Shown here: positions 3,213 to 63,999 of the stretch, piece after piece | Position numbering within the stretch: position 1 is the first letter of the stretch | Layout: each line of letters starts with the position of its first letter | IMG/VR virus record: IMGVR_UViG_3300021431_000075 | Coordinates: 448,001 to 512,000 of that record | DNA: 64,000 nucleotides | Strand: one strand, 5' to 3' | Origin: a virus | Taxonomy: Duplodnaviria > Caudoviricetes | Program-made: the position numbers and the translations under genes | Notes under the pieces: model-generated | Database searches by the model: none | Told to the model about the DNA's origin: nothing | The model's input: the letters and a program-made list of their open reading frames with translations, nothing else

Positions 3213-3299
3213 TTCTTGAACGATTTTTGTATTTATTGCTCGGATTGCTTGAATCACATTTTTGCAAATAAATAGTCTATAAATAAATTTTTGTGAATA

Positions 3300-5105: not shown

Positions 5106-5197
5106 TAAGATTTTTAAACTTTTTGTCAAAAATGAAGTAATATTTCCGTACGGAAATGATGATAAATAATTTATAATATAAAAATATTTTTATAGAA

Positions 5198-7096
5198 ATG
5201 AAAGTTAATAAAAAGAGACGCGTTAAACTTGACGAGCGTTATAACAGCATCATGAACGTGCTTGCTCGCAAGGTGAAGCGTATTATCGAAAACTGTGACG
5301 CATGTGATGATGAGTTCGACGAGTGCGACAGGTTTGATGAGTGTGGCGATGAAGAGTTTGATGAGGATACATTTGAATGTAACGAAAACTTCCGTAGAAA
5401 CAGAAGCCGCCGTTATTCAAGACTTTATGAAATGGCAAAGACTGTCATCGACAGAAAGATTCTTGCGAATGTTCGTGACAAGATTTCCCGTAACGGTTGG
5501 GATTCTCCATATGGAATCAACTGGCGTAAGGTAGTTTCGCTCCCAAGAAAATTTACACCGGATGAACTTCTTCAGTATTATGTGGCAGCGTTACTTGTCT
5601 ATGGCGAGGATTGCCCGCAGACAGAGGCTGATATCGATAAAATCGGAGTATTCACTAACTATGCACATAAGTTGATTGACGATTACGGATTCACAATTGA
5701 CGACATCAAGGATTTCTATGGAAAGAACGAGAAGATTCAGTCCAAGTCAAGAAAGGGATCTTCACGCGGTTCAAAGGCATACAGGGCAACCAAGGACAAT
5801 CCGGATCCTAACATGAATTTCGATTCAGAAGAAAGTGATGGAGCAGAAGAACCGACAAGCAACAACGGTTATCTTGATAATATTCCTGATGCTGATATAG
5901 AAAACGACTACACTGACGAGAAGCAGTTTTCGGATGAAATCGACAATGATTATGAAGAGGATGAAGATATTATCGACAATGAACCTGCGGATGTCATTGC
6001 AACTGATGATGGTGAAGGAGGTGAAGAAAAAGACTTCCCATCATATGAGGATGCAGACAAAGAGGATTTTGTAGAAGATGATGATGAACCTGTAGAAGAT
6101 GATGATGACATTCCAGTAGAAGATGACGATGATATTCCGGTAGATGACGATGATGAACCAGTAGAAGATGATGACATTCCAGATTATGATGATGTTCCGT
6201 TAGATGATGAAGATGGTGATGAATATGAAGAAGATGTTGAAAGCACCACATCTAATCGTTCGGATATGAAGAGTAGTAAGCCATATCCTGATTATGATGA
6301 CGTTCCAACCGATGGAGATGATGATGAATATGAAGAAATCGTAGATGATGATGTTTTCAATAAGTCAGAAGATGAACGTGAAGATCTTGAAGATCAAACG
6401 GATTTTGCCGACTATGATGAAAACAAGTCTGATAGAGTTCTTGATATTGAAGATGAGGACAAGAAGCCATCTGAATATACATTCGAAGATATCATCAATC
6501 CTAACTTCAATGAAGTCGTTCATAACTACAATCCAGAGAAGTTCAAGCTGGATGATGACGGAAGAATCGGTTTCGATGTGTTCAAGTATGAGACGATAGA
6601 CGAAGCAAACAAGGACTTCATTCCATCCAATAGAGAAGCATCATTCACTATATGGGGAGAGTGTGTAGCACATGCTCTGCTTAAGGTTCAGTACTTGTGT
6701 GAAGATACTTCGAGGACGTTCGGTCAATGCGACAAACAGGTTGCAAGTTTAATCAAGGTGATTAGACGTTATCAGCCTAAGTTCAACGAGCTTATCAGCA
6801 AGTACTTCGATGTTATCGATCATCTCAAGAAGACAGACACATGGTTCCTTGACAATGAAAACAGAGTATCAAATGGCGACATCAAGGTTGTTGGCAATGA
6901 TTGTCAGATAGTTCTTGACATGTTCGACCATATTGATGAAGTATGTCCGTTTGAAAAGTTGGTCGGCATGAAGGCTCGTGATTTTGATTCAAAGTATGAT
7001 TTCGATGAAATTACGAATATCGATAGCAATGAAGAAGAAATCAAAGAATCTTTTCGTTACGGAAGTAGCAGAAGAATGTCAAGAAGAAGACGCTAA
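5198..7096 (+). CDS. acidic-repeat late protein, probably virion-internal
   Basis: 632-aa ORF, basic termini, central D/E-rich repeats; GATAAATA at 5161. Confidence 0.8.
   Translation: MKVNKKRRVKLDERYNSIMNVLARKVKRIIENCDACDDEFDECDRFDECGDEEFDEDTFECNENFRRNRSRRYSRLYEMAKTVIDRKILANVRDKISRNGWDSPYGINWRKVVSLPRKFTPDELLQYYVAALLVYGEDCPQTEADIDKIGVFTNYAHKLIDDYGFTIDDIKDFYGKNEKIQSKSRKGSSRGSKAYRATKDNPDPNMNFDSEESDGAEEPTSNNGYLDNIPDADIENDYTDEKQFSDEIDNDYEEDEDIIDNEPADVIATDDGEGGEEKDFPSYEDADKEDFVEDDDEPVEDDDDIPVEDDDDIPVDDDDEPVEDDDIPDYDDVPLDDEDGDEYEEDVESTTSNRSDMKSSKPYPDYDDVPTDGDDDEYEEIVDDDVFNKSEDEREDLEDQTDFADYDENKSDRVLDIEDEDKKPSEYTFEDIINPNFNEVVHNYNPEKFKLDDDGRIGFDVFKYETIDEANKDFIPSNREASFTIWGECVAHALLKVQYLCEDTSRTFGQCDKQVASLIKVIRRYQPKFNELISKYFDVIDHLKKTDTWFLDNENRVSNGDIKVVGNDCQIVLDMFDHIDEVCPFEKLVGMKARDFDSKYDFDEITNIDSNEEEIKESFRYGSSRRMSRRRR
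6070..6200 (+). repeat. coding tandem repeat, ~24-nt unit (PVEDDDD[I/E])
   Basis: CCnGTAGAwGAyGAyGAT units repeated in frame. Confidence 0.8.
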
Positions 7097-12496: not shown

Positions 12497-14425
12497 TTAG
12501 ATTTCCTCGAATTGAGCATCCTCAATATTATCGTTGTTAGCAGTCTCTTGTTCTTGCTGTTGCTCGGAATGTGACGCGTTTGCATCAGTAGTTGTTGATT
12601 GCTGTTGCTGCTGGTACATCTTCATTGCAACAGGACTCCAGAGTTCTTCAAGTTCTTTCTGAAGTTGGTCAAGTTCTTCATACTTCTTGTCCTTTGCTGC
12701 ATTTGACAAAGCATCCGCTTTCTCGTTGATTTTGTCTGCCTCTTCCACAGTCACATGGTCTTTTGCAGACTCATTGAGTGCATTCTTGATGTTGTATGCA
12801 AACTGTTCCGCGCTGTTTGCCTTATCAACATTCTCACGCTCTTTCTTGTCTGCCTCTGCATTTGCTTCCGCTTCAGCCTTCATTCTCTCGATTTCATCTT
12901 TCGACAATCCGGATGAAGCAGTGATTGTAATCTTCTGTTCTTTTCCGGTTGCCTTGTCTTTCGCAGAAACGTTAAGGATGCCGTTTGCGTCGATGTCGAA
13001 TGTTACTTCAATCTGCGGAACTCCTCGCTTGGCAGGCGCGATGCCGTCAAGCATGAATCGACCGATAGACTTCGCGTTTCTTGCCATCTGGACTCCTGCT
13101 GGAGCCTGAAGCACATGGATTCCGACACCCGGCTGATTGTCTTCGGCAGTACTGAACACTTCCTCGTGCTTGAACGGAATCGTCGTGTTTGCTTCAATCA
13201 TCGTGGTCATAACGCCGCCGAGCGTTTCGATGCCGAGACTTAGTGGAGTTACGTCAAGGAGAAGGATGTCTTTTCCTGCTGCGACTGAATCATCACCAGA
13301 CAGCAATGATGCCTGAATCGACGCGCCTGCTGCTACGACTTCATCCGGATTCACGCTCTTGTTTGCCTGCTTTCCGAAATAATCCTCTACTGACTTCTGC
13401 ACGATAGGGATTCTTGTAGAGCCGCCGACAAGGATAATCTCGTCGATTTCCGACTTGTCGAGTTTCGCGCTCTTGAGAACTTCTTCGACAGGAGCCATTG
13501 TTCTGCGCACGATGTCCGAAATCATTTGCTCGAATGTTGCTCTTGACAGAGTCTTGACAAAATGCTTTGGACCTGTTGCGTCTGCTGTGATGTACGGAAG
13601 GTTGATGTCTGTTGAAGAACTTGATGAAAGTTCAATCTTTGCCTTTTCAGCGGCTTCCTTGATGCGCTGCATAGCCATCATGTCCGATGAAACGTCAACG
13701 CCTTGCTCTGACTTGATTGAATCGACAATCCAGTTCACGACAAGATTGTCTATGTCCTTGCCGCCAAGATGACAGTCTCCGGATGTGGCAACGACTTCAA
13801 AGATTCCGTCGCTCAATTCAAGCAATGATACGTCATGTGTGCCGCCACCGAAGTCGAACACGAGAATCTTCTGCTCCTTCTCGATGTTGTTGAGACCGTA
13901 TGCAAGTGCCGCAGCAGTCGGCTCGTTGATGATTCTGAGAACATTGAGACCTGCGATTTCGCCTGCTTCCTTCGTAGCCTGTCTCTGTGCGTCATTGAAG
14001 TATGCAGGAACCGTGATGACAATGTCCTTGACTTCTTCGCCGAGATAATCTTCTGCTGTCTGCTTCATTTTCTGAAGAATCATTGAAGAAATCTCTTGCG
14101 GAGTATATAGTTTTCCGTCGATGTTGACTCTTGGATATCCTGCTACGTCATCGACCTGATATGTTACAGAGTTGATATCGTTCTGGACTTGCTTTGTCTC
14201 GCAGCCCATGAAACGCTTGATTTCATAGACAGTGTTCTTCGGGTTTGTTACTGCTTGACGCTTGGCTCCGTCGCCTACTTTGCGCTCTCCTTCTTTTGTG
14301 AAACCTACGACTGACGGAGTCGTGTTCTTGCCTTCAGAGTTTGGAATAATCTGAGGTTTGCCATTTTCAATGACTGCGACACAACTGTTTGATGTGCCCA
14401 AGTCGCAACCGATTGCTTTTGCCAT
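12497..14425 (-). CDS. dnaK: DnaK (Hsp70) chaperone
   Basis: [42 protein letters not shown]. Confidence 0.98.
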
Positions 14426-14502
14426 TATACTTAAATATTAAATAATTTTGTCGTTTAATTTTGAATCGATAATCATCGGATTATCTTTCAAGGGCTTGAA
14501 TG

Positions 14503-14518
14503 TGCAAAGCGTGTGCCA
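14503..14518 (-). promoter_or_regulatory. sigma54-type (-24/-12) promoter for dnaK
   Basis: minus strand TGGCACACGCTTTGCA = GG-N10-GC consensus, 78 nt upstream of dnaK. Confidence 0.7.
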
Positions 14519-14574
14519 AATGATGCATTGAAGCATATTTATGACAATGCTGCATTGTTTAATGCTAAAGTGTA

Positions 14575-14587
14575 TGACATAATGTCA
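14575..14587. promoter_or_regulatory. TGACA-N3-TGTCA palindrome, candidate activator site
   Basis: perfect palindrome ~60 nt upstream of the sigma54 element; partial copy at 14542-14554. Confidence 0.5.
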
Positions 14588-14649
14588 GTTTTCTTTCATT
14601 TTTGTGACAATGATAATAAATATCTTATAATGAAAAATAAGAGCAACTT

Positions 14650-15804
14650 ATGCGCAGATACACCATATTGAGAGAGTCGAAGTCAATAAGAAATTATAAT
14701 CTTGATGAAATGATTTCATCAATAGAGAAAGATGTCAGGGAAGAATATGATTATTATGCAAAGACGCATAAGCCGTTCAATATGGACAGGTTCAAGTCAT
14801 ATTTCTGTGATACGATTGGAAAAGAACTCTTCTATGGAGAGACTTTCCATGACTTCGGGACTTTTGATGTTGATTATTTCCATGTTAGAGTCGTTATGTA
14901 CGATGATGTTTCTTCATATGGTTTCACAGTTCCGGAATTGTGCGACAAGAACAAAAGACTTGTTGTTGTCATATTGTCTTCGAAATTCATCCCGGAAATG
15001 TTAAACGGAACAGGAAAGTTGTTTAATACTTTGACACACGAAATCCGGCATGGTGAAGACATTATTAATGACAGGATAGATACGCATTTTGAGATGATGG
15101 GTAAGACCGCTATCAAGTTCTATGGAGAGACTTATAATGTTGAAAAGTTCAGCAACACGGATGATAGTATCAAATATGTGACATATTTCTTGACAAGAAC
15201 AGAACTTAAGGGATATATCCAGTCAGTTGGCGGCATATTGAGAAGATATTTGAATGAGTCGAATCCGAAGTTGTTAAGAGATGCTCTTGTCAGGCTGGCA
15301 CACAAGATGAAGAAACCTCTTAAATTTCGCAGACTTTATGATTTGTTTTCTAAGAATGATGACGGAAAGCGTCTGTTGCTTGAACTATTCATAAACGAGT
15401 CGAACATATTTAGGATTTATTTCAGAGAGTTGAATGAAATCATGGTTGATTATAGTTTTTTCAAGAAATATATCATCGACTCTATTGAATCACACAAGAA
15501 AGATATGCCGGAATATGTCGTCTGGTTGAAGAATATGCTTGATAGTCAGTACTTTCCAAAGGATGATAATAGACGAAAGAAGCACAATGACATGTTCAAT
15601 TCATTGATGAAGAAATATATGGGTTATGGAATGAATCCGATAGAAGCACTTCAAACATATATAGAGAATGACTATTCGAAAATATTATATGACAGGACAC
15701 ATAGAGATTATATGAAGTTCATTGCTGCTGTTGTAAAGAATCTGATAGAAGAAGTTTCAAGATTTGATTCTAACGAAGAAGCAATTGAAAAGTTGAAGAA
15801 ATAA
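14650..15804 (+). CDS. HExxH (zincin-like) motif protein, late
   Basis: LTHEIRHG with downstream TELKGY; AATAAATA at 14615. Confidence 0.65.
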   Translation: MRRYTILRESKSIRNYNLDEMISSIEKDVREEYDYYAKTHKPFNMDRFKSYFCDTIGKELFYGETFHDFGTFDVDYFHVRVVMYDDVSSYGFTVPELCDKNKRLVVVILSSKFIPEMLNGTGKLFNTLTHEIRHGEDIINDRIDTHFEMMGKTAIKFYGETYNVEKFSNTDDSIKYVTYFLTRTELKGYIQSVGGILRRYLNESNPKLLRDALVRLAHKMKKPLKFRRLYDLFSKNDDGKRLLLELFINESNIFRIYFRELNEIMVDYSFFKKYIIDSIESHKKDMPEYVVWLKNMLDSQYFPKDDNRRKKHNDMFNSLMKKYMGYGMNPIEALQTYIENDYSKILYDRTHRDYMKFIAAVVKNLIEEVSRFDSNEEAIEKLKK

Positions 15805-15903
15805 TTAAAAATCCTAATTTAAATAATTATTGAAGTTTTTTGTGTTGTTGGTTTATAAATAATGTCTATATTTGCAAAAATAATTTGATAAAATAGAAAA
15901 ATT

Positions 15904-16747
15904 ATGATTATAAATGAAGATTTCAATAATGATTTAACAGCAAATATTTTATTCGAATGCGTTAGTTATAATAGAAATGCTGGAACTTTTGTATTCAATT
16001 TTTCTAATGATAATGATGATGAAATTATAAAATTAGAAAAAAAAAGTACATAGAAGTGAAATTTTCAATAATTGCTATTATTTTGCTTATGAATTTGAAT
16101 CAGATGTTGATTCATATATTAGAAGCCTTTTTATAAAGAGCATAAAATTTCCTGACGGTACTATATCAGAAGATGATAAATGTACTTTTATTGGTAACGC
16201 TGTGAGAAGTTTGGATTCTGAAATCAATCTTATAAAATATGATACGTTGATATATCCGCAATCAATGTCTGAATTGACAAGAGAAATGATAAAATATCTT
16301 TCTAAATTTGCATGACCGAAATTTGTTAGTTTTGAGTTGATAAAAGAGTTGCCAGCAAAAATAGAGTTTGATTATGATAAATTTGCTGCTGGTGAATTGA
16401 ATTCCACATTGCGGAATGGAATGCCAAGATATACAAATGCTCAAAAAGATGATGTATTGAAGAAAATAAGGGAAATGATGGACAATGTTCATTCAAGTGA
16501 TTATTTTTCAATAGCAAGAAGTATAAAGAAGACAAAATATAGACCATATATAAAGAACTATTATAATTTTAAAGATAAAAAAGATAAAGAGCTTTTTGAG
16601 CAGATCAATAATAGCAATGTTCTTGTTGTTGATGATATGGCAACAAGCGGAACGACGATATTTCATCTATTGAAAACAATTCGTTCTATTAATGATAGTA
16701 ACAATATTACCGTCTTTAGTCTTCTCGGCAAAAACTTGAAAATCTAA
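15904..16747 (+). pseudogene. disrupted type I phosphoribosyltransferase-domain gene
   Basis: ATG 15904 frame ends at TAG 16051 after A9 tract 16037-16045; the +1 frame continues through in-frame TGA 16313-16315 to the PRPP-binding motif VLVVDDMATSGTT. Confidence 0.75.
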
Positions 16748-17526: not shown

Positions 17527-20178
17527 CTAATTGTTGCTTGATTTTCTTGTAAACAGATTTCCAAGTATGCGGACTCTGTTGCTGCTGTTGCCAAGGAACA
17601 GGTTCGCGCTGGTTGTCGATACGGTCTGGAATGCCTGTTCAGGGTCAACAGGCATGAACTTGGCAATAAGCGTTGTGTCTGCGTTTCCGTGGTTTTGAAG
17701 TTCCTTCCCAGGCGGAATCTTGAACACCTGATAGCCGCGAGCTCCGATCATTTCCATCGCTCTTTTCTGTGTCATGTATTCCGGAGTTACCCATCCGTTC
17801 TCCGTCATCACGTCGCGACCGCCGGTGAACGGATCGACTTTGGTTTCGTAGTTGGAAACCGCCTTGACATAGTCGGGAAGCTTGTATATCTTTCCTGCGC
17901 CGCGGTTGAACATCGACTGTATCGCAGCCTTGTCTCTTGCCATCGCATGCTCAATCGTATATACGACTTTCATTTCCAGCGGGAAGTCATCAGGTCCGAG
18001 TTCATCTCCGAAAGAGACATCCATCTTCTTGCAAATCAGATTTCCGACAACCATCATCGGGTTCAACGGATTTCCGATTGTCAGGTGCCAGTTTCCGGTA
18101 GGCTCTCCGCTCAACAGAGAACGAAGTCCGCTGACATTCGGAAGCACGGTTTCCTGAATGACTTGGTCTTTCCACATGCTATTCAGATTGTTGAACATGT
18201 TACTGAGCGCGTCCCTGCCTTTCTGTGCCGCGTCTTCTCCTGCGATGTTGTTTGCCACATCCCCTGCTTTGTTGAACCACGAGCCGACTGTTGACATGGA
18301 ACCCATCAGAGCAGAACCGATTGACTGAAGCATTCCGCCGATTGCGCCGACTGTCTGGCTCAGGATATTTCCCATTCGCTCAGTCAATATGCTCCATTCG
18401 ATAGAACTTGTAGCCGAGTCTGTGCTGACTTTCTTTCCGAATGACAGGAAACCCTCAAGACCCTTTGCAATCGCTCCGTTCTTTCCGAATATGTTGCCTG
18501 CATATAGAGCATCCATCATGCTTCCGCTTCCGGTACCGCGCTTGAACGGGTACATATGCGGCTTGATGTTGAATCTGTAACCGCCGCCCCAGAACACTGC
18601 ATCTGCAGAAGCAATCTCCATCGCGTTGGAAAGAATATCAAGCATTGCCGCTTTTGTGTTGATGCCGCCGATAGGTCTTGCCACATACTCGCAAGTCAGT
18701 GTGAAAGACTGTGAGAACTCGATGCCGGCATCTCTTGCCTGAACGCTCTGGATACGATTGACAGGACCTACAATCTTGTTTGAGTACAGTGATTCTGTAG
18801 GATCCATATTCGCGCTTGTCAAGTGTTCCCAAGCCGCTTGGTTATGACCATCATAACCGTTTGGCGACAAGAGTCCGACAAACTTACCGAACGATAGATA
18901 CTGCCCGGTCAATCCTCCCATGGCGCCGAGAAAGTTCGTGACGATTCCGGAACCTGATGTGATTCCTGAAAAACCGCCTCCACTTTCAAACATCTTGTCG
19001 ATGACCGCTCTCGGATTGCTGCCGACGTCTCCTTCTATCTTGTGAATGTCCGCGCTGATTTCTTTCCACTTGGTTCCTGACGAGAACTTCAGGAAATCAT
19101 TCAGCTTGTTGGCAGAATCGCCGCCGAAGTATGTCACGACTGTGGCAATAGGAGACGCTATGTTATGAGTCGCTTCGGTTCCTGCATCATTCAGCATATT
19201 GTAGAACTGAAGATTGTCATAAACGGGAACCGCATACTTTCTGAACGTAATCAGGCGGTTGTTCGGAATGATGTTCCAGAACTTGCAGAATACGAAGTCT
19301 TGGAAACTGTACGGGGTTCGTCCCCACTGGTCCTTGTTGCTCCAGTTTATGATATTTGAAGTCGTTGGATTGTTAATGCTCGTGAAGTCATCAGGGTTCA
19401 TGACAATGGAATCACCCTTTACGTTTGCCGTATCATAGAATCGCTTCGTGTCACGGATATCGTACATGTGGACTTCCTTGTTGTCTGAATTGACATTCGT
19501 TATGCCGCCGACAAGCCTTGTCACGCAATACGGGTTTATGAGCGACTGGACACCGTACATGTTGCCGTCTTTCTTGAGCTCTTCGACTTGAGCCTTGTTT
19601 GTCGCTATCTTATCTCCGCCGCTTGAAAGCGTGTTCACTTTCTGGTTTGTCGCTTCCTCATAAGCGGCTTTCTCGATTGTGAACACTTCATCGAAGTATG
19701 CGGAAGCCGCAGTGTCTGACGCGAACGGAACAATTATCTGTCCGGGAGAGTTCTTCTGCGTTGCAAGGAAACCGTCGATTCTGATCAGTCGAGGGTCCCA
19801 AGCCGCAGCATGTCTGGATTCCGGAAGAGTGCTACCTTCGTCCGTAGTCGCGTTCACTATTCCGCTGATGTCGTTTCTGCTCTTTTTGTACAGAGAGTAG
19901 TATTTCGCATCGTCAAGGTTCAGCATAGAGAGCATATCGTCGATATATACTTGGAGCCTGTTGATTTCATCTTCTTCATAGTATTCGTTTATATATGAAG
20001 ATATTTCATATTGCTTGCGCTCGTCAGAATACCCGCTATTGTTCAATATGTTTTCTATGATTGCAGCAAGAGAACCGTCTGCACCGTAGAGACCTTTTGC
20101 GTCATTCGATGCATTATGCTTCTTGTTTTGAATGTACTTTTTCTGATGCTTCTTATCTACGAGATTTAACGTCTTCAC
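17527..20178 (-). CDS. large virion structural protein, baseplate/tail-associated (putative)
   Basis: 883-aa ORF co-transcribed with the gp53-like gene; late box at 20237-20244; Gly-rich helical middle. Confidence 0.65.
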   Translation of the reverse strand: MKTLNLVDKKHQKKYIQNKKHNASNDAKGLYGADGSLAAIIENILNNSGYSDERKQYEISSYINEYYEEDEINRLQVYIDDMLSMLNLDDAKYYSLYKKSRNDISGIVNATTDEGSTLPESRHAAAWDPRLIRIDGFLATQKNSPGQIIVPFASDTAASAYFDEVFTIEKAAYEEATNQKVNTLSSGGDKIATNKAQVEELKKDGNMYGVQSLINPYCVTRLVGGITNVNSDNKEVHMYDIRDTKRFYDTANVKGDSIVMNPDDFTSINNPTTSNIINWSNKDQWGRTPYSFQDFVFCKFWNIIPNNRLITFRKYAVPVYDNLQFYNMLNDAGTEATHNIASPIATVVTYFGGDSANKLNDFLKFSSGTKWKEISADIHKIEGDVGSNPRAVIDKMFESGGGFSGITSGSGIVTNFLGAMGGLTGQYLSFGKFVGLLSPNGYDGHNQAAWEHLTSANMDPTESLYSNKIVGPVNRIQSVQARDAGIEFSQSFTLTCEYVARPIGGINTKAAMLDILSNAMEIASADAVFWGGGYRFNIKPHMYPFKRGTGSGSMMDALYAGNIFGKNGAIAKGLEGFLSFGKKVSTDSATSSIEWSILTERMGNILSQTVGAIGGMLQSIGSALMGSMSTVGSWFNKAGDVANNIAGEDAAQKGRDALSNMFNNLNSMWKDQVIQETVLPNVSGLRSLLSGEPTGNWHLTIGNPLNPMMVVGNLICKKMDVSFGDELGPDDFPLEMKVVYTIEHAMARDKAAIQSMFNRGAGKIYKLPDYVKAVSNYETKVDPFTGGRDVMTENGWVTPEYMTQKRAMEMIGARGYQVFKIPPGKELQNHGNADTTLIAKFMPVDPEQAFQTVSTTSANLFLGNSSNRVRILGNLFTRKSSNN

Positions 20179-20314
20179 GATGACTCGATTATGTTTTCAG
20201 CAAGAATGAAATGTGTGTAATCTTGCTATATTTTTTTATTTATCATTAAATAGGTGATTTTAGCATAATGAAAAATTATAAGATGTTAAAAAAATAAAAA
20301 TATAGTCATGCTGT

Positions 20315-20346
20315 TTTGTTTTAATGAATGAAATCTATTAACTTTG
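20315..20346 (+). promoter_or_regulatory. Bacteroidota housekeeping promoter
   Basis: TTTG-N20-TAACTTTG. Confidence 0.75.
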
Positions 20347-20382
20347 CAAGCACAATAAAACATTTATAAACATTATAAAGAT

Positions 20383-21012
20383 ATGAAGAACTTTAGACAT
20401 TTTCTATTTGTTATTAGTGCTCTTGTTTTTGTTTCATGTAGTACTTATGAATATTCATTCAGGCTTGTTGATGTTGAAAGACCTGTTGATGCGAAACAAC
20501 AATTTGGAGAAACTGAATCAGTTGTTGTTAAAAATAATGGTTTGTGCCGTTATGAAGATGAATATATAGATGTTACTTGGCATGTGGATATGGAATCTAT
20601 AAGATTTTCAATTACTAATAAAACAAATCATTCTTTGAAAATTAATTGGAACGATGTTTGTTTTGTTGATGCAAACAACCAAGTGAGACATGTTACTCAT
20701 TCTGGATATAAAGATTTGAATAATTTGCAGCCGATGAGTATGATTCCAAACGGTTCCACATTGACTGATTGTATAATTCCAGAGGTTAGAGTTTATAATT
20801 ATAACCATATTGGAAAGAAAAAGACTTATATATTGCCGAACATATACAAGCAATATAAAGATACAAAAGAACTTGAAAGCACGAAACAGTCTGCAACAAG
20901 TTTTGTTGGTAAAAAAATAACATTGGTTGTGCCCATTATAATCAAGAACGTTCAAAATGATTATATGTTTACGTTTGTTGTTGATAGACTTTTGAATACA
21001 CAAAGTAGATGA
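20383..21012 (+). CDS. Bacteroidetes-type lipoprotein
   Basis: signal peptide with lipobox VFVSC; AT-rich; own host-type promoter. Confidence 0.75.
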   Translation: MKNFRHFLFVISALVFVSCSTYEYSFRLVDVERPVDAKQQFGETESVVVKNNGLCRYEDEYIDVTWHVDMESIRFSITNKTNHSLKINWNDVCFVDANNQVRHVTHSGYKDLNNLQPMSMIPNGSTLTDCIIPEVRVYNYNHIGKKKTYILPNIYKQYKDTKELESTKQSATSFVGKKITLVVPIIIKNVQNDYMFTFVVDRLLNTQSR

Positions 21013-21098
21013 TTTGAAATGCTGGGGATTGTCTAATTTCATCATTAGTGATTTCCGGGGATTTTCAAAATAAATACTTTCAAAACAAACAACCGGCA

Positions 21099-21578
21099 AT
21101 GAATCCAGACGAAATACAGCAGCAACAGACGCAAGAATCAACAGAAAACACTCCGGAAGACAAGGCGACAAAACTCCGTAACTATTGGACAGAGGAAGTC
21201 CAAAAACTGAATGAATATTTGAAAAACCTTCCGTCTGTTGACCATTTGATTAATATTGTTTATACAAAAAGACAAGAGGCTGTTGATAACTATTATGCAA
21301 CGATGTCTGTATACAACAAGCAGTATCGTATATACAAGCAGAACTATGCCCAGATTTACAACAATATCAAAGCAGGTTCCAATGGCATACGATATACAAG
21401 CGACCAAGCAATAGACAAGCAAATTGACGCGCAGTTGATTGCACAGCGAGAAGTCCTTGATGAATTGAATGTTCTGATGAGTTTCTTATGGGAGACTGTC
21501 AAGTCTATCGATGGTATTCAGTATGCTATTGGTAACAAGATTAAGATTCATGAAATGATGAATGGCTTGAAGTTCTAA
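21099..21578 (+). CDS. UvsY-like recombination mediator
   Basis: helical; C-terminus ETVKSIDGIQYAIGNKIKIHEMMNG resembles UvsY; ATG 21099 follows AATAAATA 21069. Confidence 0.55.
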   Translation: MNPDEIQQQQTQESTENTPEDKATKLRNYWTEEVQKLNEYLKNLPSVDHLINIVYTKRQEAVDNYYATMSVYNKQYRIYKQNYAQIYNNIKAGSNGIRYTSDQAIDKQIDAQLIAQREVLDELNVLMSFLWETVKSIDGIQYAIGNKIKIHEMMNGLKF

Positions 21579-21606
21579 AAATAAATAAATAAAGTCGTTT
21601 TAAGAA

Positions 21607-21978
21607 ATGAGACGAAATAACAAGTTGACCGAGCAGCAAATCAGGCATAGAGTCATGAGAGAAGTCTATGATTTTTTGAATGAGCATTTTCCTGCGGATG
21701 TTATCGAGCAGCAAGCATTGGATAAAGTGAGAAAACTTGGTGAGTTCGATATTATAAAGATTAAGTATGCTCCTGCAAAGTTTAACGGTTATCTTGAAAT
21801 TGAGAACAATATATACAATAACTACTATGTTGTTGGATGGAATTTTAATTATGGATGCCCAAGAAGCACACAAAGATTCAGAAATCCGGAGGAAGTAATT
21901 AAGTTCTTAAAAGATAATGGCATTGATCTTTCGTCTCTCGTTGAAACAGTAAATCCGGATTTGACAAACGGTCTATAA
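21607..21978 (+). CDS. hypothetical late protein
   Basis: ORF with KLTE/VMRE/FLNE leader; AATAAATA at 21580. Confidence 0.7.
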   Translation: MRRNNKLTEQQIRHRVMREVYDFLNEHFPADVIEQQALDKVRKLGEFDIIKIKYAPAKFNGYLEIENNIYNNYYVVGWNFNYGCPRSTQRFRNPEEVIKFLKDNGIDLSSLVETVNPDLTNGL

Positions 21979-21995
21979 AAACGTTCTTTATCTTT

Positions 21996-22214
21996 ATGTC
22001 TAAGAAAATAAAGAAAATCAGCAAGAGTAATAATGATTCGTCTGGAATCATAAGAATGGTCGGCGATGCTGGCTATCTTGTAAAAGACACTCCATGTCTG
22101 ATTCCGAAGGAGAACATGCCAATGTTCAATGCCATGAGAAAGACTGCCGGCGTATCTTCTTTTGGAAACTATCCGAATCCGTTCAACATTTTCTGGAAAG
22201 GTGGAGGAAAGTAA
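21996..22214 (+). CDS. small hypothetical protein
   Basis: 72-aa ORF followed by a terminator. Confidence 0.6.
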   Translation: MSKKIKKISKSNNDSSGIIRMVGDAGYLVKDTPCLIPKENMPMFNAMRKTAGVSSFGNYPNPFNIFWKGGGK

Positions 22215-52552: not shown

Positions 52553-54484
52553 TTATAGCCATGCTACATTTCCCTGATATAGCGTCGTTTCTTGTCCTGC
52601 CGAGTCTCCGGTGTCAGTCATGATTGCAAAGTATCTGTTTGCGGCGGGTACGCTCATAATCTGCTCTGCCTGTTCGCCTGTTATGTAGAAAACGAGAGTT
52701 CCGATACCGAGATTTTGCTTGGTTGAGTCAGGGTTCGGACTTATTGCCAATTTCTGTGTTCCGTCAAGCAACGGAAAGACAATCTTGTACTTGTACGGTC
52801 CTGTCAGGTCATAAGGAATCCTCGCATTGTCATCGTTGATATTGAACAGCTGGACAAGATAGTTGGAACTTGTCCTGTATAGCCTGAGCGTCATCTGTCC
52901 CTGGGTGTATATGTTCGCTCCGGTTCCGATGTTCTTTGCTACAAGGTTTGTCGAGTTGTAGTAGCTTCTTATGTACTTCTCTTTTATGTTCTCTTGTGGA
53001 GACACGATGTTATGTGTCGTTCTGTTAATCTTGTTGACAATCTTGTATGTGTTGACATTCAGATAGTTCTTGATGTCGTCCATATAGTTGTTCGCGTCAA
53101 CTGTCAGTGTCGCTATTCTGATAGCCTCGATTGCCTTATATACGTTCACGAGCCTGCAAGTGTACTTGAGACAGATTGCATATGCGCCGATTTTCTCGAT
53201 GATATTCTTGTTCGGGACGAATCTTGTTCTCCAGTACTCGACCGTGTTCATTTCCGCATTCTTGCTATAGTCGATGATTCTTGAATATGCCTCGTCATAA
53301 CCGTAGTCCGAATTTCCGACCTTATATACATAAGTGACGTTCAAGTCGTTATATATTTTCCATTTGATTGGTCTGTCGTCCGAATCGTTGTTATAGTATA
53401 GAGAGTCGCCTCCGTAGTCAACATCGTTTATTTCATCATCCGCCGTGTTCAGGTCATAGAAACTGTTCGTTGTTACTGGAATAGCGCCAGCTTCTATCTG
53501 TGCCATGATGTTTCCGTCGAGTTCGTATGAGTTCGTGCTGTCGCCGTAAGTCGGATAGTATATGATTGAATGGTCGTTCGGGTCTTCGTATATCCTGACG
53601 TTGAAGTAGTCTGAAGATACTTCCGGATTCATAGACGCGGAAACGACCGAGTCTGTCGTGAAACGAACGGCGGATAATTCAAAACTTCCGATGCGCACTT
53701 TGGCTGTGGCATCTGACTTTCCTGATGATACAGTTGCAAAGTCTATGATTGTGTTCGCGTTCGGATTCACCTTGTATTCGACATTGTCAAGAACGAAAGT
53801 GTAACTCGGGTTTATGGCATCTGCATAGTCCTTGAGAGCGATTCCGTACAGGGACGGAAACTCTATCGTGATGTATCTGTCATAGAACTTCGAGTTCATG
53901 AACAGCGGAGACTTCAGATAGCGGATGATGGTCCTGTTCTGGCTGTCTGTCGTGACTCCGTTGAAAAGGTCCTTGCTGACATATCCGCAGAAGATGGTCG
54001 CATCTGTTTCCTTCGTATAGCGCCTGCCGTCGTCCTCGTTGATGTCATAATTTGCTTTAGACTTCACCTGTAGAGTGAATCCGTCTATGTTGTCGAAGTT
54101 GAAGCCCCTGATGAAATAGATGTTTATCTGGTCATAGTAGAAACCGGCATTCGTTTTTTCTTCCGAGTACTTTACTACTGACGAAGTCTGATAGTTCATC
54201 GCATTCGCTATCGTTATTCTTGAGTCTGTTATGTGCTCGAAAGATGTTCCGTTCTCATCCGGATACATCTGGTAAATGGACATGTTCTTGTAGTAGTCTG
54301 CAGATGATGTGTATTTCGGTGCTTCCGTGTAGTATATGTTGTCATCGTTTCCCTTGTATATGTAATATCTGCTCGGCTGCGTGTAGCCGTCGATGCCCTG
54401 ATTGTTGATGATGTTGTACTGGTTGCTTCTATATTCAAGAAGAATCTGCGGAGTTACTCTATAGAAATTGGATGTGATAGCCAT
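52553..54484 (-). CDS. putative virion structural protein
   Basis: 643-aa beta-rich ORF; AATAAATA at 54509-54516. Confidence 0.7.
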   Translation of the reverse strand: MAITSNFYRVTPQILLEYRSNQYNIINNQGIDGYTQPSRYYIYKGNDDNIYYTEAPKYTSSADYYKNMSIYQMYPDENGTSFEHITDSRITIANAMNYQTSSVVKYSEEKTNAGFYYDQINIYFIRGFNFDNIDGFTLQVKSKANYDINEDDGRRYTKETDATIFCGYVSKDLFNGVTTDSQNRTIIRYLKSPLFMNSKFYDRYITIEFPSLYGIALKDYADAINPSYTFVLDNVEYKVNPNANTIIDFATVSSGKSDATAKVRIGSFELSAVRFTTDSVVSASMNPEVSSDYFNVRIYEDPNDHSIIYYPTYGDSTNSYELDGNIMAQIEAGAIPVTTNSFYDLNTADDEINDVDYGGDSLYYNNDSDDRPIKWKIYNDLNVTYVYKVGNSDYGYDEAYSRIIDYSKNAEMNTVEYWRTRFVPNKNIIEKIGAYAICLKYTCRLVNVYKAIEAIRIATLTVDANNYMDDIKNYLNVNTYKIVNKINRTTHNIVSPQENIKEKYIRSYYNSTNLVAKNIGTGANIYTQGQMTLRLYRTSSNYLVQLFNINDDNARIPYDLTGPYKYKIVFPLLDGTQKLAISPNPDSTKQNLGIGTLVFYITGEQAEQIMSVPAANRYFAIMTDTGDSAGQETTLYQGNVAWL

Positions 54485-54629
54485 GCTTTTTGAACATTTA
54501 TTGTTTAGTATTTATTTTAGTAATTGTATATTTTTATATTATAAACAATCAAAACTGCATAAAATATTCAATTATTTATATGTGAAAATATTGAGTCGAT
54601 GAGACTTATAATGTATAATTTTATAACAC

Positions 54630-56006
54630 TTAATGAAACCATTCATCAAGCCAATTGTTCATCTTTGCAACAATATATGCTCTATTAGACTTATAATAAA
54701 AATCACGTTTTGTTTTATATTTTTTTGATTCTTCATAACAAGTTTCATAATTCCAATAATTTTTTGGTTTTTTGATAAACCAATTATAATCATAAATCCA
54801 TTTGTTTTTACATGAAGTATGATATGCTGTTTGGTTACCTTTTTTGAATTCTCCACTTGTTCTATATTTTTTTGCTTCTTTGTAACAAGTTTCATAATTC
54901 CATTTTCCTTTTCCGATGCTACCAATCGAACCTGTTTTTGCTTTGTTCAATATAACCCATCCATTTTCTTTATATCTTTTTAGCCAGTATTCTTCTTTAA
55001 TCGCACCTTCTTTTATTGTTAGATTTGTTTCAAGAATCTTCATCTGTGGAACAGCAATATTATGTTTCTTGGCAAAAGAAGAAACACTATCTAAATCATA
55101 TATATGCTCTTTGTCTCTTATTTTTGCTCTCTTTACTAATGTTCTTCCAATATATGCTGAATTTTGTTCTTTAAATTCATAAACATAAACACAATCTATT
55201 TTATCTTTATATAAGTCAAATCTAATATCTTTGAGCCATTTATAATCATCAATCCATTTGTTTTTATGTGCAGCAAAGTATGCATATTGATTCTCATTTT
55301 TAAATTCACCTCTGGAACTGTATTTTTTTGCTTCGTTGTAACAGTTTTCATAATTCCAAAACCCATTTGGTTTTGCTATTTGTTCAAACCAAGTGTAATC
55401 ATCAATCCACTTGTTTTTGAATGCTGCTTTGTATGCTGATTGACAACCTTTTTGAAAATTTTTTCTTGTTTTATATTTTTTTGCTTCTTCGTAACAAGTT
55501 TCATAATTCCATTTTTGTTTTGTTTTTGATGGAGCAAACCAGATATAATCATCAATCCATTTGTTTCTAAGTGCAACATCATATGCGCTGTTACAATTTT
55601 TACTAAATTCATTTCTGGAACTGTATTTTTTTGCTTCATTGTAACAGTTTTCATAATTCCAAAACCCATTTGGTTTTGCTATTTGCTCAAACCAAGTGTA
55701 ATTATCAAGCCACTTGTTTTTTAATGCCGCATTGTATGCACCACTACTTCCTTTTTGAAATTTTTTTCTTGTTTTATATTTTTTTGCTTCTTCGTAACAA
55801 GCTTCATAATTCCATTTTATTTGGTTTAATGAACGTAATTTAATTCCATCGTCAAACCAATCATAATCATCAATCCAATTGTTTCGTCTTGCACCATTAT
55901 AAGCACTGTTATTGCTATGCTTAAATTCATTTCTTGTCTTATATTTTTGGGCTTCTGTATAACAATGATTATAGTTATCCCAATAACCTTTAGGGTTTCT
56001 TTTCAT
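54630..56006 (-). mobile_element. free-standing GIY-YIG (homing-type) endonuclease with seven ~50-aa repeats
   Basis: CVYVYEF...AYIGRT...R..EH...E..W...Y...G..ILN flanked by 5+2 WNYExCYxEAKKY repeats; very AT-rich. Confidence 0.8.
55311..55817. repeat. 303-bp-period internal direct duplication
   Basis: TCTGGAACTGTATTTTTTTGCTTC... at 55311 and 55614, near-identical for ~200 bp. Confidence 0.85.
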
Positions 56007-56116
56007 ATTTAATTATTTTTTTAAATTTATCTTGATTTTATGTTTAATGAAATCTTGATTTTCAGCACAGAAAAAGCCGGCATTCAACTTAAGATGACCG
56101 GCTTGTTCTATAATAT

Positions 56117-56884
56117 TTAAAAGTTGATGATTCCGTATCCGACTCCGATTCCGATGTATGGTTTGAACTTCATGTCGCTTGTGAGACCGAAACCGACTTG
56201 CGGTCCTATGTGCCATCTTTTCTGCTTGAACTTTGACTTGATGACTGCGCTTTGTGTCGGGTCGATGACTGCTCCGGTTATGTCATTTATCTTTACAAAC
56301 GGGTTCTCGCTCCTTGCTATGAACTTGAGCTGCTTGTCGCGCTCAATCAAATCAACGGTCAAGTCAACCGGGATGTACAGGTTCGTAATAGTTGTCGAGA
56401 ATCCTGAGAAGTCCGATGCAACATCTGTGATGCCGGAAATCGAATAGTAGTAGTCAGGATGCGTGCTGTGCCAGTGTAGTTGCCTTTGTGTGGAGTCCGC
56501 GTCTGCCACGACTATAGAGTCTGCATCCGCATAGATGGTGTCCGTGTGGAAGTACTGCTTGATTTTGGTAATCGTGACCGGATGGTCTTTCAGGTTTCTG
56601 ACTTCGTCTGCAAGTTCGTCGTTTTGTTGCTTCAGTTCGTCAATCGTCTTGATGTATGTGTTCTTTGCAACATATTCCTCGTTCAGTTTGTTCTTGTATA
56701 TCTCAATCGAGTCGTTGACGATGACGACAGGCTTTAGAGAGCGCTTATAGTAGTGTCTTGCTGCAAGTATTCCTGCTGTTGCTGCAACAACAAGTATGAA
56801 GATAATCCAGTCTTTGACTGTCATTTTCTTCGCTACGGCAAGAATCCATTCAATCACTTGTGCTGCTATTGCTGTTAAGTTCAT
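56117..56884 (-). CDS. membrane-anchored lysis accessory (spanin-like) protein
   Basis: N-terminal TM helix, coiled coil, C-terminal beta hairpin KRWHIGPQVGFG...YIGIGVGY; adjacent to lysozyme. Confidence 0.6.
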   Translation of the reverse strand: MNLTAIAAQVIEWILAVAKKMTVKDWIIFILVVAATAGILAARHYYKRSLKPVVIVNDSIEIYKNKLNEEYVAKNTYIKTIDELKQQNDELADEVRNLKDHPVTITKIKQYFHTDTIYADADSIVVADADSTQRQLHWHSTHPDYYYSISGITDVASDFSGFSTTITNLYIPVDLTVDLIERDKQLKFIARSENPFVKINDITGAVIDPTQSAVIKSKFKQKRWHIGPQVGFGLTSDMKFKPYIGIGVGYGIINF

Positions 56885-59898: not shown

Positions 59899-61278
59899 TT
59901 ATGCGTTATAAACTTGCAAGAATGGAATAGTATAAGTATTTTCATTAATTCCTTTTTTATCGACAGTCATTTTATTATTTACATAATGAACACAATAAGA
60001 GTATATTAAATCATCACTGATGATGAAGCTGCTTGATATAAAAGTTCTTTCGAATGATGAAACCAAATCTTTTAAAGCATAAGAAAATTTATATTTGGAT
60101 AATGATTCATCAATTAAAGAAACGATATTTTCCAAATTACTGAATAATCCTTCAAGTTCATAAATTGCCGGAATGTACCAGTTTCCTTCTGTAGTTCCAA
60201 TCGGAGCATATTTGTATGTAATCATATTGGTTGGAAAGGTTCCTCGTTCATGATCGTCGCTAATTATTTGACTGTACCAATTCTCATCAAAATTTCCAAA
60301 TTTATCAATCTCGTCATTCATCATCTTATATAGTATCGGCTGGTTCTGATAACCGTGCATTTGAGATAACTGATTTATTAAATCTTTGTCCGGATTGAAT
60401 AAAAATGGTGCAAATGTGCAGAAACCATGTTTGATTTTATAACCGCTGCAACCATATTTGGGATAAAACAGGGATGCTATGTTCAATGCTGAAAATATCG
60501 CAGATTTGGTTCCAGGGATGACACATACAGCAATTGGATAGTTGAGCATGTCATCTTCAGTCTGCTGGCTGACAAGTTTTCCATCACGAGTTGCATACAG
60601 CAAAGAACCGATTTTGAAATCCTTGATTTTCTGGTTTGAACTTTCTGATAGATGAACCGGTCCTGTATATGACAATTGCGGTTTTCTAATTTTAATTGTT
60701 TGCTTGTTGTTTCCGAATAGTTTGGTGAACGTTAGCCTTATGTTTTGTGACTTTACTGAGAATTTGTCAAATATGCAACAATCATCAACAAATATGCTAT
60801 AATAATAGATTTCATCAGCATTGTGAGAAATTGTACTGATTAGTTTATAGAATAAGTTCGACCACAATCTGTAGGCATACTTAAAATCACAATCTTTGTT
60901 TAATTTGACATCTATAATAATATGTGGAAAAATGAAATCACTTGTTATTTCATTATATATTTCACGCATCTTTTCATAGATTTCCTTCCGGTTGATAAAA
61001 ATCTCATTTGACAATTTATTAACATCGCTTGTCTTACAAAACATTGCATCACCGATTTTATAACTAAAAATATGATACTCTATTAGAGGATGTGTTGATA
61101 GTATGTTATTTGTTGCTGTCAATAATGAGTATATTTGACGTTTTAACCGATTTTTAGCATAATCATATAGACATGTAAACGTTGATAGAATATCAAATCT
61201 TAACTGACAATCAAATTCAACATCATCAGTTATTTCGGTTGGTTCTATATTGTCAAAAAGGCTTTCGTTCAGTGTCAT
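59899..61278 (-). CDS. hypothetical late protein with WYIP..EL C-terminal domain
   Basis: AT-rich; MTLNESLFD leader, PIAVCVIP, GNWYIPAIYEL. Confidence 0.7.
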   Translation of the reverse strand: MTLNESLFDNIEPTEITDDVEFDCQLRFDILSTFTCLYDYAKNRLKRQIYSLLTATNNILSTHPLIEYHIFSYKIGDAMFCKTSDVNKLSNEIFINRKEIYEKMREIYNEITSDFIFPHIIIDVKLNKDCDFKYAYRLWSNLFYKLISTISHNADEIYYYSIFVDDCCIFDKFSVKSQNIRLTFTKLFGNNKQTIKIRKPQLSYTGPVHLSESSNQKIKDFKIGSLLYATRDGKLVSQQTEDDMLNYPIAVCVIPGTKSAIFSALNIASLFYPKYGCSGYKIKHGFCTFAPFLFNPDKDLINQLSQMHGYQNQPILYKMMNDEIDKFGNFDENWYSQIISDDHERGTFPTNMITYKYAPIGTTEGNWYIPAIYELEGLFSNLENIVSLIDESLSKYKFSYALKDLVSSFERTFISSSFIISDDLIYSYCVHYVNNKMTVDKKGINENTYTIPFLQVYNA

Positions 61279-61341
61279 GGAAAAACGATATTGTACATAT
61301 TAAGATATTTATCGTTTTCTGCCGAGCGAAAGCCTTTTTAA

Positions 61342-63999
61342 TCAAATCAGTTCTGGAATATCATAAATTCGATTGCTGCCGCTGGTCGGGCGTATCTGCG
61401 GGTTCTGCTCCAGTGAGTTTAAAGAAGCCGCTGACTGTTGATGCACTTCGTTCACATATATGTATGATGAAGGAGAAGCGAAGTAAATCTTGAATGATGC
61501 TCCGTTTTCATTGAATGTGGTCTTTAGCATTCGCAAGTGAATAACAGCAGTATTTGTGGCTCCAAATGCAACATATTTGTTATTGCCTTGTATGTCTATG
61601 AATACGGTTCCTGCTGACATTTCTCCGCCTGTCATGCCTGAATAGATCGGTTCCCATGTCGTTTCATTGTATCCGGTTATTTTTTTATTGATGCATATGT
61701 ACAAATCTTCAACAACAGGTCGTTCTATATTTGTATGATGATACAGGTTTGTCAGTTCTGGTGTTATGTGCAATTCCATCACATAGTAACCATTATAAGG
61801 AGACGCGGTGTTGCTTATAACATTCAATACATACTTCCTTAGATATTTCTCTATTGAGATGTTAAATGACTTTGCCGGCGCGTTGTTCGGGTCTCTTTTG
61901 TATAAGACTTCATAAGTATATTGGTTGGTTCCGTCTGCGATATATCTGAAACCGGAACTGTCAAACAACCATCCGCAATTCGGTTGTGTTGTAATTTCAT
62001 CACAGGTTGAATTATCAACATCAACGGTAAAGTCGTTCATGTGAACTTCCTTTGAACGGGTAGTGATGCCGTCCTTGACGATTTCCTTGTTTGCAAACGT
62101 AAACTTGAAACTTGAATCGGAACTTCTGACGCTCAATCCGTTTCCGGTTCCAATCCTTGATATGCTTCTGACTGGATATGCCTTTGCGCTGATGTTTATC
62201 GATATGGTCCTGTCTCCGTTCTTGCCGGTCATCTTTAAGAAATCTGTGAATGGATAATCTGTATAGACAAATGACGAATTGTCGATTGTGCGGTACTGCT
62301 TGTAGAAATCAATCGCAGTTTTTATTGAAACATAATGGCTATACGGAATGACTCTTTCAACATCATTGCTGTCTATCATCTTCAGTGTCGGAAGATTGTA
62401 GATGTTTGAATTCGTAGCAACTTGGATGATTTTTGTTCCTGTCAAGAAGTCTTTTATGTTGCTTGCCGTATATGTATTGCTATCGCCTGCCAATTTTATG
62501 TTTTGCAATACGGCAGACGGAATTCCTTGATTTATATTAATCAAGTATCTTCTTTTGAGAACATTCGTGGAACCGTGCATCTCATACTCTTCCACATATG
62601 ACTGGAAGTACACATGCGTATAGCAGCCTACGGCAGAGTTAAGATACATATATTCCTGTTCGTCCGTATATATCTCTATCTGGTCGTTCGAATAGTCGAA
62701 TTCTTGTTTTGTCGGAACGATTGCTACCGCTCTGAAGCATTCCACTGTTGTTGACGGTCTTTTCGACGCAGTTATTCTCACGCTATATATCTCTCCCTTG
62801 CTGCTTGTCGGCGAACCGTCTATAAGTGTTCCGATGGACCATTCAAGATGCGTGCTTGGTCTGTCGGATGAAGTCAGAAGTTCCCAACCTGGATCATCAG
62901 GTTCTGCATTTTTGTTTTGCGAGTAGTATATCTCAAACATATAACCGTCATATGAACTGTTGTCCAGCGGCTCGTTGTCTGGCAAAGTCAGGTTCCATGA
63001 GATGTCCCTGATATGACCTACGACTGTCGTATATAATTTTTTTGTTCCGGCTGTGTTGCTGGTCACGCTCCAGAACGGGTTGTAGTCGTCTGTTAGTGTC
63101 GTCTGGTATCCGCTTTGACCTTCGCCGTCATAAGTGTCTGAGAAAACAGCATATATGTCATACGTCTTGTACTTGACAGAGTCTATATAGAAGGCGACCG
63201 CGATTTTCTCTGTCCAGTTGTCGTTCAGAGAATATATGACATCCGGCCACTTGATTGTATTGTTATTGCCGTAAAAATAGCACTCTGCTGTATGGATTAT
63301 GTTGAACGACTCAAGTTCCGAACTCAAATAATAAATCAGCTTGTATGTGAATCCCGTATAGTCTTCGGTCGTTCTTGATATGCTCAATGCAATCTCCTTG
63401 TTGTATTTAGTCGGTGTTCTGAATGATAGCGGATTGCTTGTGTCTCCGTATCCTTTGACTTCATCCGAGATGACGACAGGTTCCATGCCATTGTAGTCTG
63501 TGCTGATAGTCAAGCCCGGCTGACCGATGACATAGAAATCATATGTTCTTGTGAACACAGGCTCGATGTTGATTATTATCGTCGATGCTTCTTGGTTGAT
63601 ATAGAAGTCGCAGTCGATATTCCAGTTCGGTTTGTCATATGCAAGTTCTTCCAATTCTGAAGTTTCCTCTATTGACTCGCCGTTCTCTATTATTTCCGTA
63701 GTGATTGAATAGTAAAGTTTCTCATAGCCGTAGTTTATCTGGCTGATGTTCAACGAGAAGTATGTGTATGCATATTCGGCAGGAGGTATCGGAAGACCGT
63801 CCTGTGAGACATAATACGCATAGATGTAGTAATCTTCGTCGCTTACGTCAACACATTCAAACCGTGGCAATGCTGAACCGATTTCTTCATCATACCTGTG
63901 CATATATGCAACATTTGCATTGATGAACGGAATGCCGGATACAGAATCGTTTTTCGGTATCCTTACATATATCTGCTTGTCGTTGTAGCCCTTGATTGC
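61342..63999 (-). CDS. large beta-rich putative virion protein, 5'-truncated by window edge
   Basis: frame of the 853-aa ORF stays open from 63903 to the window end. Confidence 0.8.
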   Translation of the reverse strand, partial: AIKGYNDKQIYVRIPKNDSVSGIPFINANVAYMHRYDEEIGSALPRFECVDVSDEDYYIYAYYVSQDGLPIPPAEYAYTYFSLNISQINYGYEKLYYSITTEIIENGESIEETSELEELAYDKPNWNIDCDFYINQEASTIIINIEPVFTRTYDFYVIGQPGLTISTDYNGMEPVVISDEVKGYGDTSNPLSFRTPTKYNKEIALSISRTTEDYTGFTYKLIYYLSSELESFNIIHTAECYFYGNNNTIKWPDVIYSLNDNWTEKIAVAFYIDSVKYKTYDIYAVFSDTYDGEGQSGYQTTLTDDYNPFWSVTSNTAGTKKLYTTVVGHIRDISWNLTLPDNEPLDNSSYDGYMFEIYYSQNKNAEPDDPGWELLTSSDRPSTHLEWSIGTLIDGSPTSSKGEIYSVRITASKRPSTTVECFRAVAIVPTKQEFDYSNDQIEIYTDEQEYMYLNSAVGCYTHVYFQSYVEEYEMHGSTNVLKRRYLININQGIPSAVLQNIKLAGDSNTYTASNIKDFLTGTKIIQVATNSNIYNLPTLKMIDSNDVERVIPYSHYVSIKTAIDFYKQYRTIDNSSFVYTDYPFTDFLKMTGKNGDRTISINISAKAYPVRSISRIGTGNGLSVRSSDSSFKFTFANKEIVKDGITTRSKEVHMNDFTVDVDNSTCDEITTQPNCGWLFDSSGFRYIADGTNQYTYEVLYKRDPNNAPAKSFNISIEKYLRKYVLNVISNTASPYNGYYVMELHITPELTNLYHHTNIERPVVEDLYICINKKITGYNETTWEPIYSGMTGGEMSAGTVFIDIQGNNKYVAFGATNTAVIHLRMLKTTFNENGASFKIYFASPSSYIYVNEVHQQSAASLNSLEQNPQIRPTSGSNRIYDIPELI

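Follow-up and report, generated by a model that had tools for sequence, protein, structure and literature searches.

The question raised by this locus is how a nuclease of the GIY-YIG kind, set in the middle of an array of small repeats, might be directed to its target. The gene lies in a window of 64,000 nucleotides, bases 448001-512000 of a virus record that measures 673,114 bp and has direct terminal repeats; the record is the 673-kb genome of a Lak-like gut megaphage. Its product (henceforth P0001; Table 1) was recovered as an identical protein on four contigs from independent samples and matches phrog_20046 (E 4.6e-64), which is annotated as function unknown. An earlier note on this DNA had proposed seven repeats of about 50 residues, five before and two after a catalytic domain. 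This layout was confirmed by repeat finding, which recovered a 123-nt unit in seven copies spaced by 147-165 nt inside each array, and by a repeat HMM, which scored all seven at 61-89 bits; the non-repeat domain between repeats 5 and 6 spans about 110 residues. The newly derived consensus, WNYE.CY.EaKKY.tr..F.k....AY..a.kNkWiddy.w, agrees with the scaffold given before, and all seven variable strings of the form xxxAYxx quoted then are present in P0001 (7/7). Pairwise identity among repeats 2-7 is 41-78%, with differences at many scaffold positions too, and repeat 1 has one residue more than the others (WDNYNHCY).

Table 1. Features of the nuclease gene and its surroundings (positions in the window)
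Feature	Position	Strand	Remarks
AT-rich insert	54485..56116		1632 bp, 27.1% GC, between two genes adjacent in Lak phages
Downstream flank gene	52553..54484	(-)	643 aa, conserved Lak-type, no family match; 44% GC
Upstream flank gene	56117..56884	(-)	255-aa DUF6808 protein; adjoins endolysin gene
Hairpin and U-run	56066..56112	(-)	after DUF6808 gene, just before nuclease gene; dG -20.7 kcal/mol, z -4.5
Nuclease ORF P0001	54630..56006	(-)	458 aa, ATG to TAA; five repeats, GIY-YIG domain, two repeats
Repeat 1	55854..55982	(-)	aa 9-51; divergent
Repeat 2	55686..55814	(-)	aa 65-107
Repeat 3	55533..55661	(-)	aa 116-158; single-repeat AF2 model pLDDT 91, three helices
Repeat 4	55383..55511	(-)	aa 166-208; duplicate partner of repeat 2
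Repeat 5	55230..55358	(-)	aa 217-259; duplicate partner of repeat 3
GIY-YIG catalytic domain	54924..55199	(-)	aa 270-361; I-TevI 1mk0 structure match, profile match, invariant residues
Repeat 6	54777..54902	(-)	aa 369-410
Repeat 7	54633..54755	(-)	aa 418-458; C-terminal

Whole-protein scans of P0001 against Pfam and NCBIfam gave nothing useful, and a sequence search of the PDB with the protein returned noise only. The central segment alone scores 16.3 bits against the Pfam family PF01541, below the threshold of 22.6; its homologues P0067, P0068, P0029 and P0030 (45-56% identical) pass that threshold with 24.5-30.6 bits. In the whole-protein AF2 model (pLDDT 87), the domain is predicted to form strands at residues 271-278, 283-290 and 323-329 with flanking helices, in the order strand-strand-helix-helix-strand-helix. 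The best solved fold for this model is the I-TevI catalytic domain 1mk0 (VIA Z 9.8; 86 of 97 residues at an rmsd of 2.5 A). PD-T4-3, UvrC and Slx1 come after it, all of them GIY-YIG folds, and the Z score of I-TevI stands well above those of the non-GIY-YIG matches. Likewise, a profile of 61 family nuclease domains placed I-TevI first in the PDB (E 0.004), with only GIY-YIG proteins among the top matches. Across these 61 domains Y274, Y285, G287, R297, H301, E338 and N354 are invariant. The GIY and YIG motifs of P0001 read VYVYEF and AYIGRT and align to IYQI and VYVG of I-TevI, so that Y274, Y285, G287, R297 and H301 fall on I-TevI motifs, the arginine and histidine on its R..RH stretch. We conclude from the homologue scores, the predicted layout, the structure match, the profile and the invariant residues that the central domain is a GIY-YIG nuclease, as the earlier note had claimed, and that it belongs to the I-TevI class; on the same grounds the P0001 nuclease looks catalytically intact.

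The remainder of the protein consists of the repeats and their linkers. A single repeat is modelled by AF2 as three short helices, in keeping with the idea of a modular array of small helical units. For the protein as a whole pTM is 0.37; its linkers, which vary in length, are modelled with low confidence (pLDDT 49-73). Because of these two values, the repeats are predicted to be independent three-helix domains held on floppy linkers like beads on a string; packing into a solenoid finds no support in the same values. DNA may nevertheless induce the repeats to order into a continuous superhelix.

Variation within the repeats is strongly patterned. Among 1270 family repeats, a core of W3, C8, A12, Y15, F21, A28, Y29, A32, W37 and W43 is nearly fixed, and entropy peaks at columns 7, 19, 22-27, 30, 31, 33 and 34, more than ten columns exceeding 2.7 bits. 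These high-entropy columns map to the last part of helix 2, to the turn and to the side of helix 3 that is exposed, which bears out the suggestion that variable residues cluster around the AY motif. The same pattern is found inside the gene itself. Two segments spaced by 303 bp are 91% identical over 215 nt; the two-repeat duplication seen before is thus real, pairing repeat 2 with repeat 4 (88% at the nucleotide level) and repeat 3 with repeat 5 (81%). The duplication is a mosaic in which the scaffold is 93-100% identical at the nucleotide level, compared with approximately 47-70% for the variable patches: 31 of 78 nucleotides differ at the family variable columns versus 12 of 207 elsewhere, an approximately 10-fold excess (Fisher p = 2.6e-11). 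In the patch dN is 0.59 and dS 0.44, and in the scaffold dN is 0.044 and dS 0.158. The signal is real and striking, and we conclude that the variable patch is a functional, diversifying surface. Since dS is also higher in the patch, positive selection need not have acted alone, and gene conversion of the scaffold may have contributed to the mosaic alongside it.

Whole repeats are also gained and lost. In 12 of 35 pairs of proteins with nuclease domains matching at 90% identity or more, the two partners have different numbers of repeats, in some cases perhaps through truncated ORFs. The closest homologue, P0064, has a nuclease 77% identical to that of P0001 and the same 5+2 layout; when the repeats of the two proteins are compared over all columns, only the last repeat corresponds (0.60), and the variable columns show no repeat-by-repeat correspondence. 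Repeat turnover in the family is thus fast, as had been supposed, and from this fast turnover the proposal that the enzyme is retargeted by exchanging repeats is plausible. Diversification driven by recombination through beads-on-a-string DNA-binding repeats has already been published for the T5orf172/CapR/DUF723 homing enzymes (PMC10448857).

The genomic setting of the gene points to an insertion. The nuclease gene has a GC content of 28.2% versus 40.7% for the genome (0.6th percentile of same-size windows), and its GC3 is 19.8% versus 58.4% in a neighbour; the neighbouring genes have 44-45% GC. Homologues of the two flank genes, 36-39% identical to those here, are adjacent in 15 of 15 Lak Prevotella megaphage genomes, those of the 643-aa gene (36% identity) being present in all Lak phages. 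In Lak-A1 the gap between them is 59 bp (with TAG read as Gln) versus 1632 bp in the phage studied here. Because the Lak relatives are distant (36-39% at the amino acid level), the date and the direction of the insertion are uncertain. Free-standing homing genes have a classic signature, an AT-rich insertion lodged between two genes that adjoin each other in relatives. The AT-rich insert, the adjacency of its flanks in relatives and the patchy contexts of the homologues described below together bear this signature, that of a putative free-standing homing endonuclease gene. This gene is the only one in the 673-kb genome that carries the repeat module. A search of viral contigs with the 643-aa neighbour found no related loci, and an insertion site shared with P0064 was ruled out, its neighbours not being detectably homologous to the flank genes here.

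Several features of the surrounding DNA were recorded along the way. The hairpin with its U-run was missed by a simple terminator scan because its outer loop is long, and a promoter scan gave matches no more frequent than in shuffled sequence. The 643-aa gene is open under the standard code; its Lak-A1 homologue (L014 1702-3903 (-)) carries 13 in-frame TAG codons and needs TAG to be read as Gln. Long frames across the genome stop at TAA 233 times, at TGA 172 times and at TAG 65 times. From the open frame and these stop counts, the 673-kb phage may not share the TAG recoding of Lak, at least around 52553-54484. Further patches of low GC (0.33-0.35) lie at 14001-16000, 20001-22000 and 60001-62000, with ORFs that have no Pfam match, and could be further foreign insertions. 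Outside the window, genome positions 423379-423540 (+) encode another GIY-YIG domain, which passes the Pfam cut-off and is free of the repeat module, and positions 108242-108331 (-) an HNH_3 domain; the megaphage is seemingly poor in homing-type nucleases for its size.

With moderate confidence, we favor the explanation that this is a free-standing, horizontally acquired gene for a homing-type endonuclease, equipped with a new modular DNA-binding array and residing in a Lak-related megaphage. Such an enzyme would carry, tethered to either side of an I-TevI-class nuclease, 5 + 2 three-helix modules of about 47 residues that fold independently and that we infer to be small, basic, HTH-like DNA-binding units. 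Acting together on their flexible linkers, the modules would recognize a long target and position the nuclease over the cut site. During co-infection an allele lacking the nuclease gene would be cut, and the gene would then be copied in where the DUF6808 gene meets the 643-aa gene. Specificity would lie with those residues of helix 2, the turn and helix 3 that are exposed; they diversify fast, and recombination adds and removes repeats.

The distribution of the family bears on this explanation. A word-indexed search with the whole of P0001 returned 2187 relatives within a length band of 251-802 aa; the majority have 9-13 repeats, with many different splits before and after the nuclease. The repeat profile matched 8453 proteins (E up to 1e-3) among 1.84 billion cluster representatives, with up to 21 matched repeat units per protein, and 126 of 137 newly retrieved representatives carry the same GIY-YIG nuclease, the others including proteins with SF2 helicases or DUF723/DUF4379 zinc modules in its place. 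We conclude that the repeat module is a large, very widespread and uncharacterized family. Fold matches in the ESM Atlas (TM ~0.9) fall mostly into phage clusters where GIY-YIG, DUF723 or NUMOD1 domains occur. Shorter versions occur in isolated phages, namely Vibrio schizoT4-like, Rhizobium, BcepSauron and Lak phages, where they are annotated as hypothetical or simply as GIY-YIG nuclease domain-containing; the Rhizobium phage versions, annotated as GIY-YIG, adjoin the primase. PF26058, listed for some homologues, is DUF8019 and was set aside, its matches being only faint.

The closest homologues occur in unrelated settings, P0064 in an unrelated phage and others in Bacteroidota-like chromosomal surroundings. 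Among sampled genomes of one bacterial order the module was found in 2 of 201, one of the two being a fragment. A search of genome contigs with P0068 retrieved one Paludibacteraceae MAG, and a scan of genome contigs with P0001 found nothing. On the contig of P0068 (L015), the chromosomal homologue sits amid AAA_14/DUF4143, UvrA-like, Thg1, AAA_35 and SIR2 genes, a neighborhood that resembles a defense island; other homologues are found outside such a context. On the phage contig of P0064 (L013), two HNH_3 genes, 3112-3606 (+) and 5159-5755 (+), lie on the opposite strand in the setting of a lysis/tail module, and the region is dense in homing-type nuclease genes.

These chromosomal occurrences invite another explanation, which we regard as unlikely: that the enzyme is a domesticated conflict nuclease, through whose repeat array the phage (or, for the chromosomal homologues, the bacterium) directs the GIY-YIG domain against rival phages, satellites or the DNA of the host. 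The location of some chromosomal homologues beside SIR2, AAA-ATPase or recombinase genes would agree with it, as would the single copy of the P0001 gene in this genome, and the several homologues that sit amid bacterial housekeeping genes also fit a domesticated role. Rapidly diversifying recognition surfaces, such as the one described above, are typical of arms races. There is precedent as well, in the T5orf172 genes (PMC10448857) and in phage ICP1, which uses the nuclease Odn in conflict with its competitors (PMC8263062). However, a PADLOC search gave no match, the neighborhoods of the homologues are inconsistent with one another, and an AT-rich intergenic insert between genes that adjoin in relatives argues against a conflict nuclease.

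A further question is whether the variable face spells out a code. The earlier note had suggested that each repeat follows a recognition code, and one can imagine a decipherable one in which a few residues of helix 3 let each repeat read a defined short word of DNA; targets could then be predicted, and swapping repeats would re-engineer them. The focus of variation on one helical face, the variable number of units per array (from 5 to 21) and the modular, independently folded repeats of the AF2 models are all compatible with such a scheme. Yet the six exposed helix-3 positions take 909 distinct signatures in 1270 repeats without a dominant class, which leaves a discrete TALE-like code unsupported, and columns 30/31 alone hold 157 different residue pairs. 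The spread of variation over more than ten columns, the 41-78% identity among repeats, which extends the differences to many scaffold positions, and the flexible linkers of varying length, which impose no fixed register, likewise speak against it. The simple code was thus not borne out, and we judge a decipherable one, which would have to take a more complex form, to be distinctly improbable.

What, then, do the repeats bind? Searches with the repeat unit by sequence and by repeat profile against Pfam, NCBIfam and solved structures identified no known family, and neither P0001 nor its repeat segments gave Pfam matches to NUMOD1/3/4 or CapR/DUF723/DUF4379, even at E up to 10. Fold searches of the PDB with one repeat (Foldseek and VIA) returned nothing above Z 3.0, so that no fold family can be named. 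The VIA neighbors at Z 2.3-3.0 are weak and mixed: the small helical inhibitor Sda leads (Z 3.0), and DNA-binding domains of the Fis/NtrC and Myb types occur beside FF domains, with Cpl-7 cell-wall-binding and Slx4 CCD domains as other weak neighbors; Foldseek adds FtsK-gamma and TyrR, non-significantly (E above 6). The turn of the repeat is often Gly and its variability lies on the exposed face of helix 3, around a three-helix core, perhaps HTH-like, whose structural matches are weak (Z <=3.0). A zinc-finger reading was ruled out because each unit conserves a single Cys. The module was not found described in the literature searched, which does not prove that a description is lacking.

The partners of the module are more informative. 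In the metagenomic proteins P0223, P0251, P0230 and P0049 it is fused to SF2 helicases or to DUF723/DUF4379 treble-clef zinc modules, and P0251 combines it with an SF2 helicase and a Methyltransf_8 domain. Judged from these fusions, the repeat appears to behave as a portable module that serves enzymes with nucleic acid substrates. DNA binding by the module is probable, mainly because all of its fusion partners act on nucleic acids and because the mean net charge per family repeat is +1.9. That the repeats instead read no DNA sequence, binding RNA, a partner protein or DNA that is modified or structured, or serving as non-specific avidity anchors, would suit the lack of a match to any known DNA-binding family and the FF, Cpl-7 and Slx4 CCD domains among the weak fold neighbors, but is very improbable given that every partner found (GIY-YIG, SF2 helicases, DUF723 zinc modules) works on nucleic acids, that the repeats are net positive and that diversification so focused points to a surface for a specific ligand.

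Returning to the homing-type enzyme, what would be new is that its targeting part appears to be an unnamed, very widespread three-helix module. GIY-YIG homing endonucleases, which are small cutters acting as monomers, already serve in engineered nucleases, for example in Tev-TALE fusions. In this family the same cutter is naturally joined to long and plastic arrays built from a single tiny helical module, which occurs in thousands of protein clusters. Should the module prove to bind DNA specifically, it would provide a new modular recognition scaffold and a clear natural case of homing-site retargeting by repeat turnover. The boldest form of this idea, in which the 47-aa module is a new and widespread class of DNA-reading unit, folding on its own, whose helix-3 residues specify short words in a learnable way, so that arrays of 5-21 units around a monomeric GIY-YIG nuclease would offer programmable, TALE-independent targeting by repeat exchange, is a long shot. 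If the module is not a specific DNA binder, the gene nonetheless provides a clean marker for the movement of genes into Lak-type megaphages.

Several known systems resemble this one in part. TALE/BurrH-type arrays, like those of the P0001 family, are tandem helical repeats with few focal variable positions and a varying number of units. Unlike them, P0001 has no near-identical scaffold, two-residue RVD or small code set, and no superhelix is predicted (pTM 0.37).

The T5orf172 enzymes with CapR/DUF723/DUF4379 zinc fingers (Barth et al. 2023, PMC10448857) likewise carry a beads-on-a-string array on a nuclease of the GIY-YIG superfamily and, as in P0001, have repeats at the nucleotide level whose number is altered by recombination. 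Some relatives of P0001 share DUF723 with them, as an extra domain only. By contrast, the P0001 module is all-helical and, with its one conserved Cys per unit, not a zinc finger, and the arrays of its family are much longer (7-21 copies) and flank the nuclease on both sides.

A further group consists of I-TevI, I-BmoI and the Seg-type enzymes of T4-like phages. They have the same class of catalytic domain as P0001, they too place the nuclease on flexible linkers to separate DNA-binding modules (putative in P0001), and they too are encoded by free-standing or intergenic AT-rich phage genes. In I-TevI-type enzymes the nuclease stands at the N-terminus, and a zinc finger, a minor-groove helix and a single HTH (NUMOD modules) come after it, whereas in P0001 the nuclease sits in mid-array among 5 + 2 copies of one unrelated three-helix module without a NUMOD1/3/4 match. 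There are also phrog_20046 and the proteins of the Vibrio schizoT4-like, Rhizobium, BcepSauron and Lak phages, which combine the same module and nuclease as P0001. These isolated-phage homologues have fewer repeats, arranged for instance as 2 + nuclease + 2 in Vibrio phage VH7D and as nuclease + 3 in Rhizobium RHph_TM3_3_9, and their repeats end in C-x-H, in place of the W-F of P0001.
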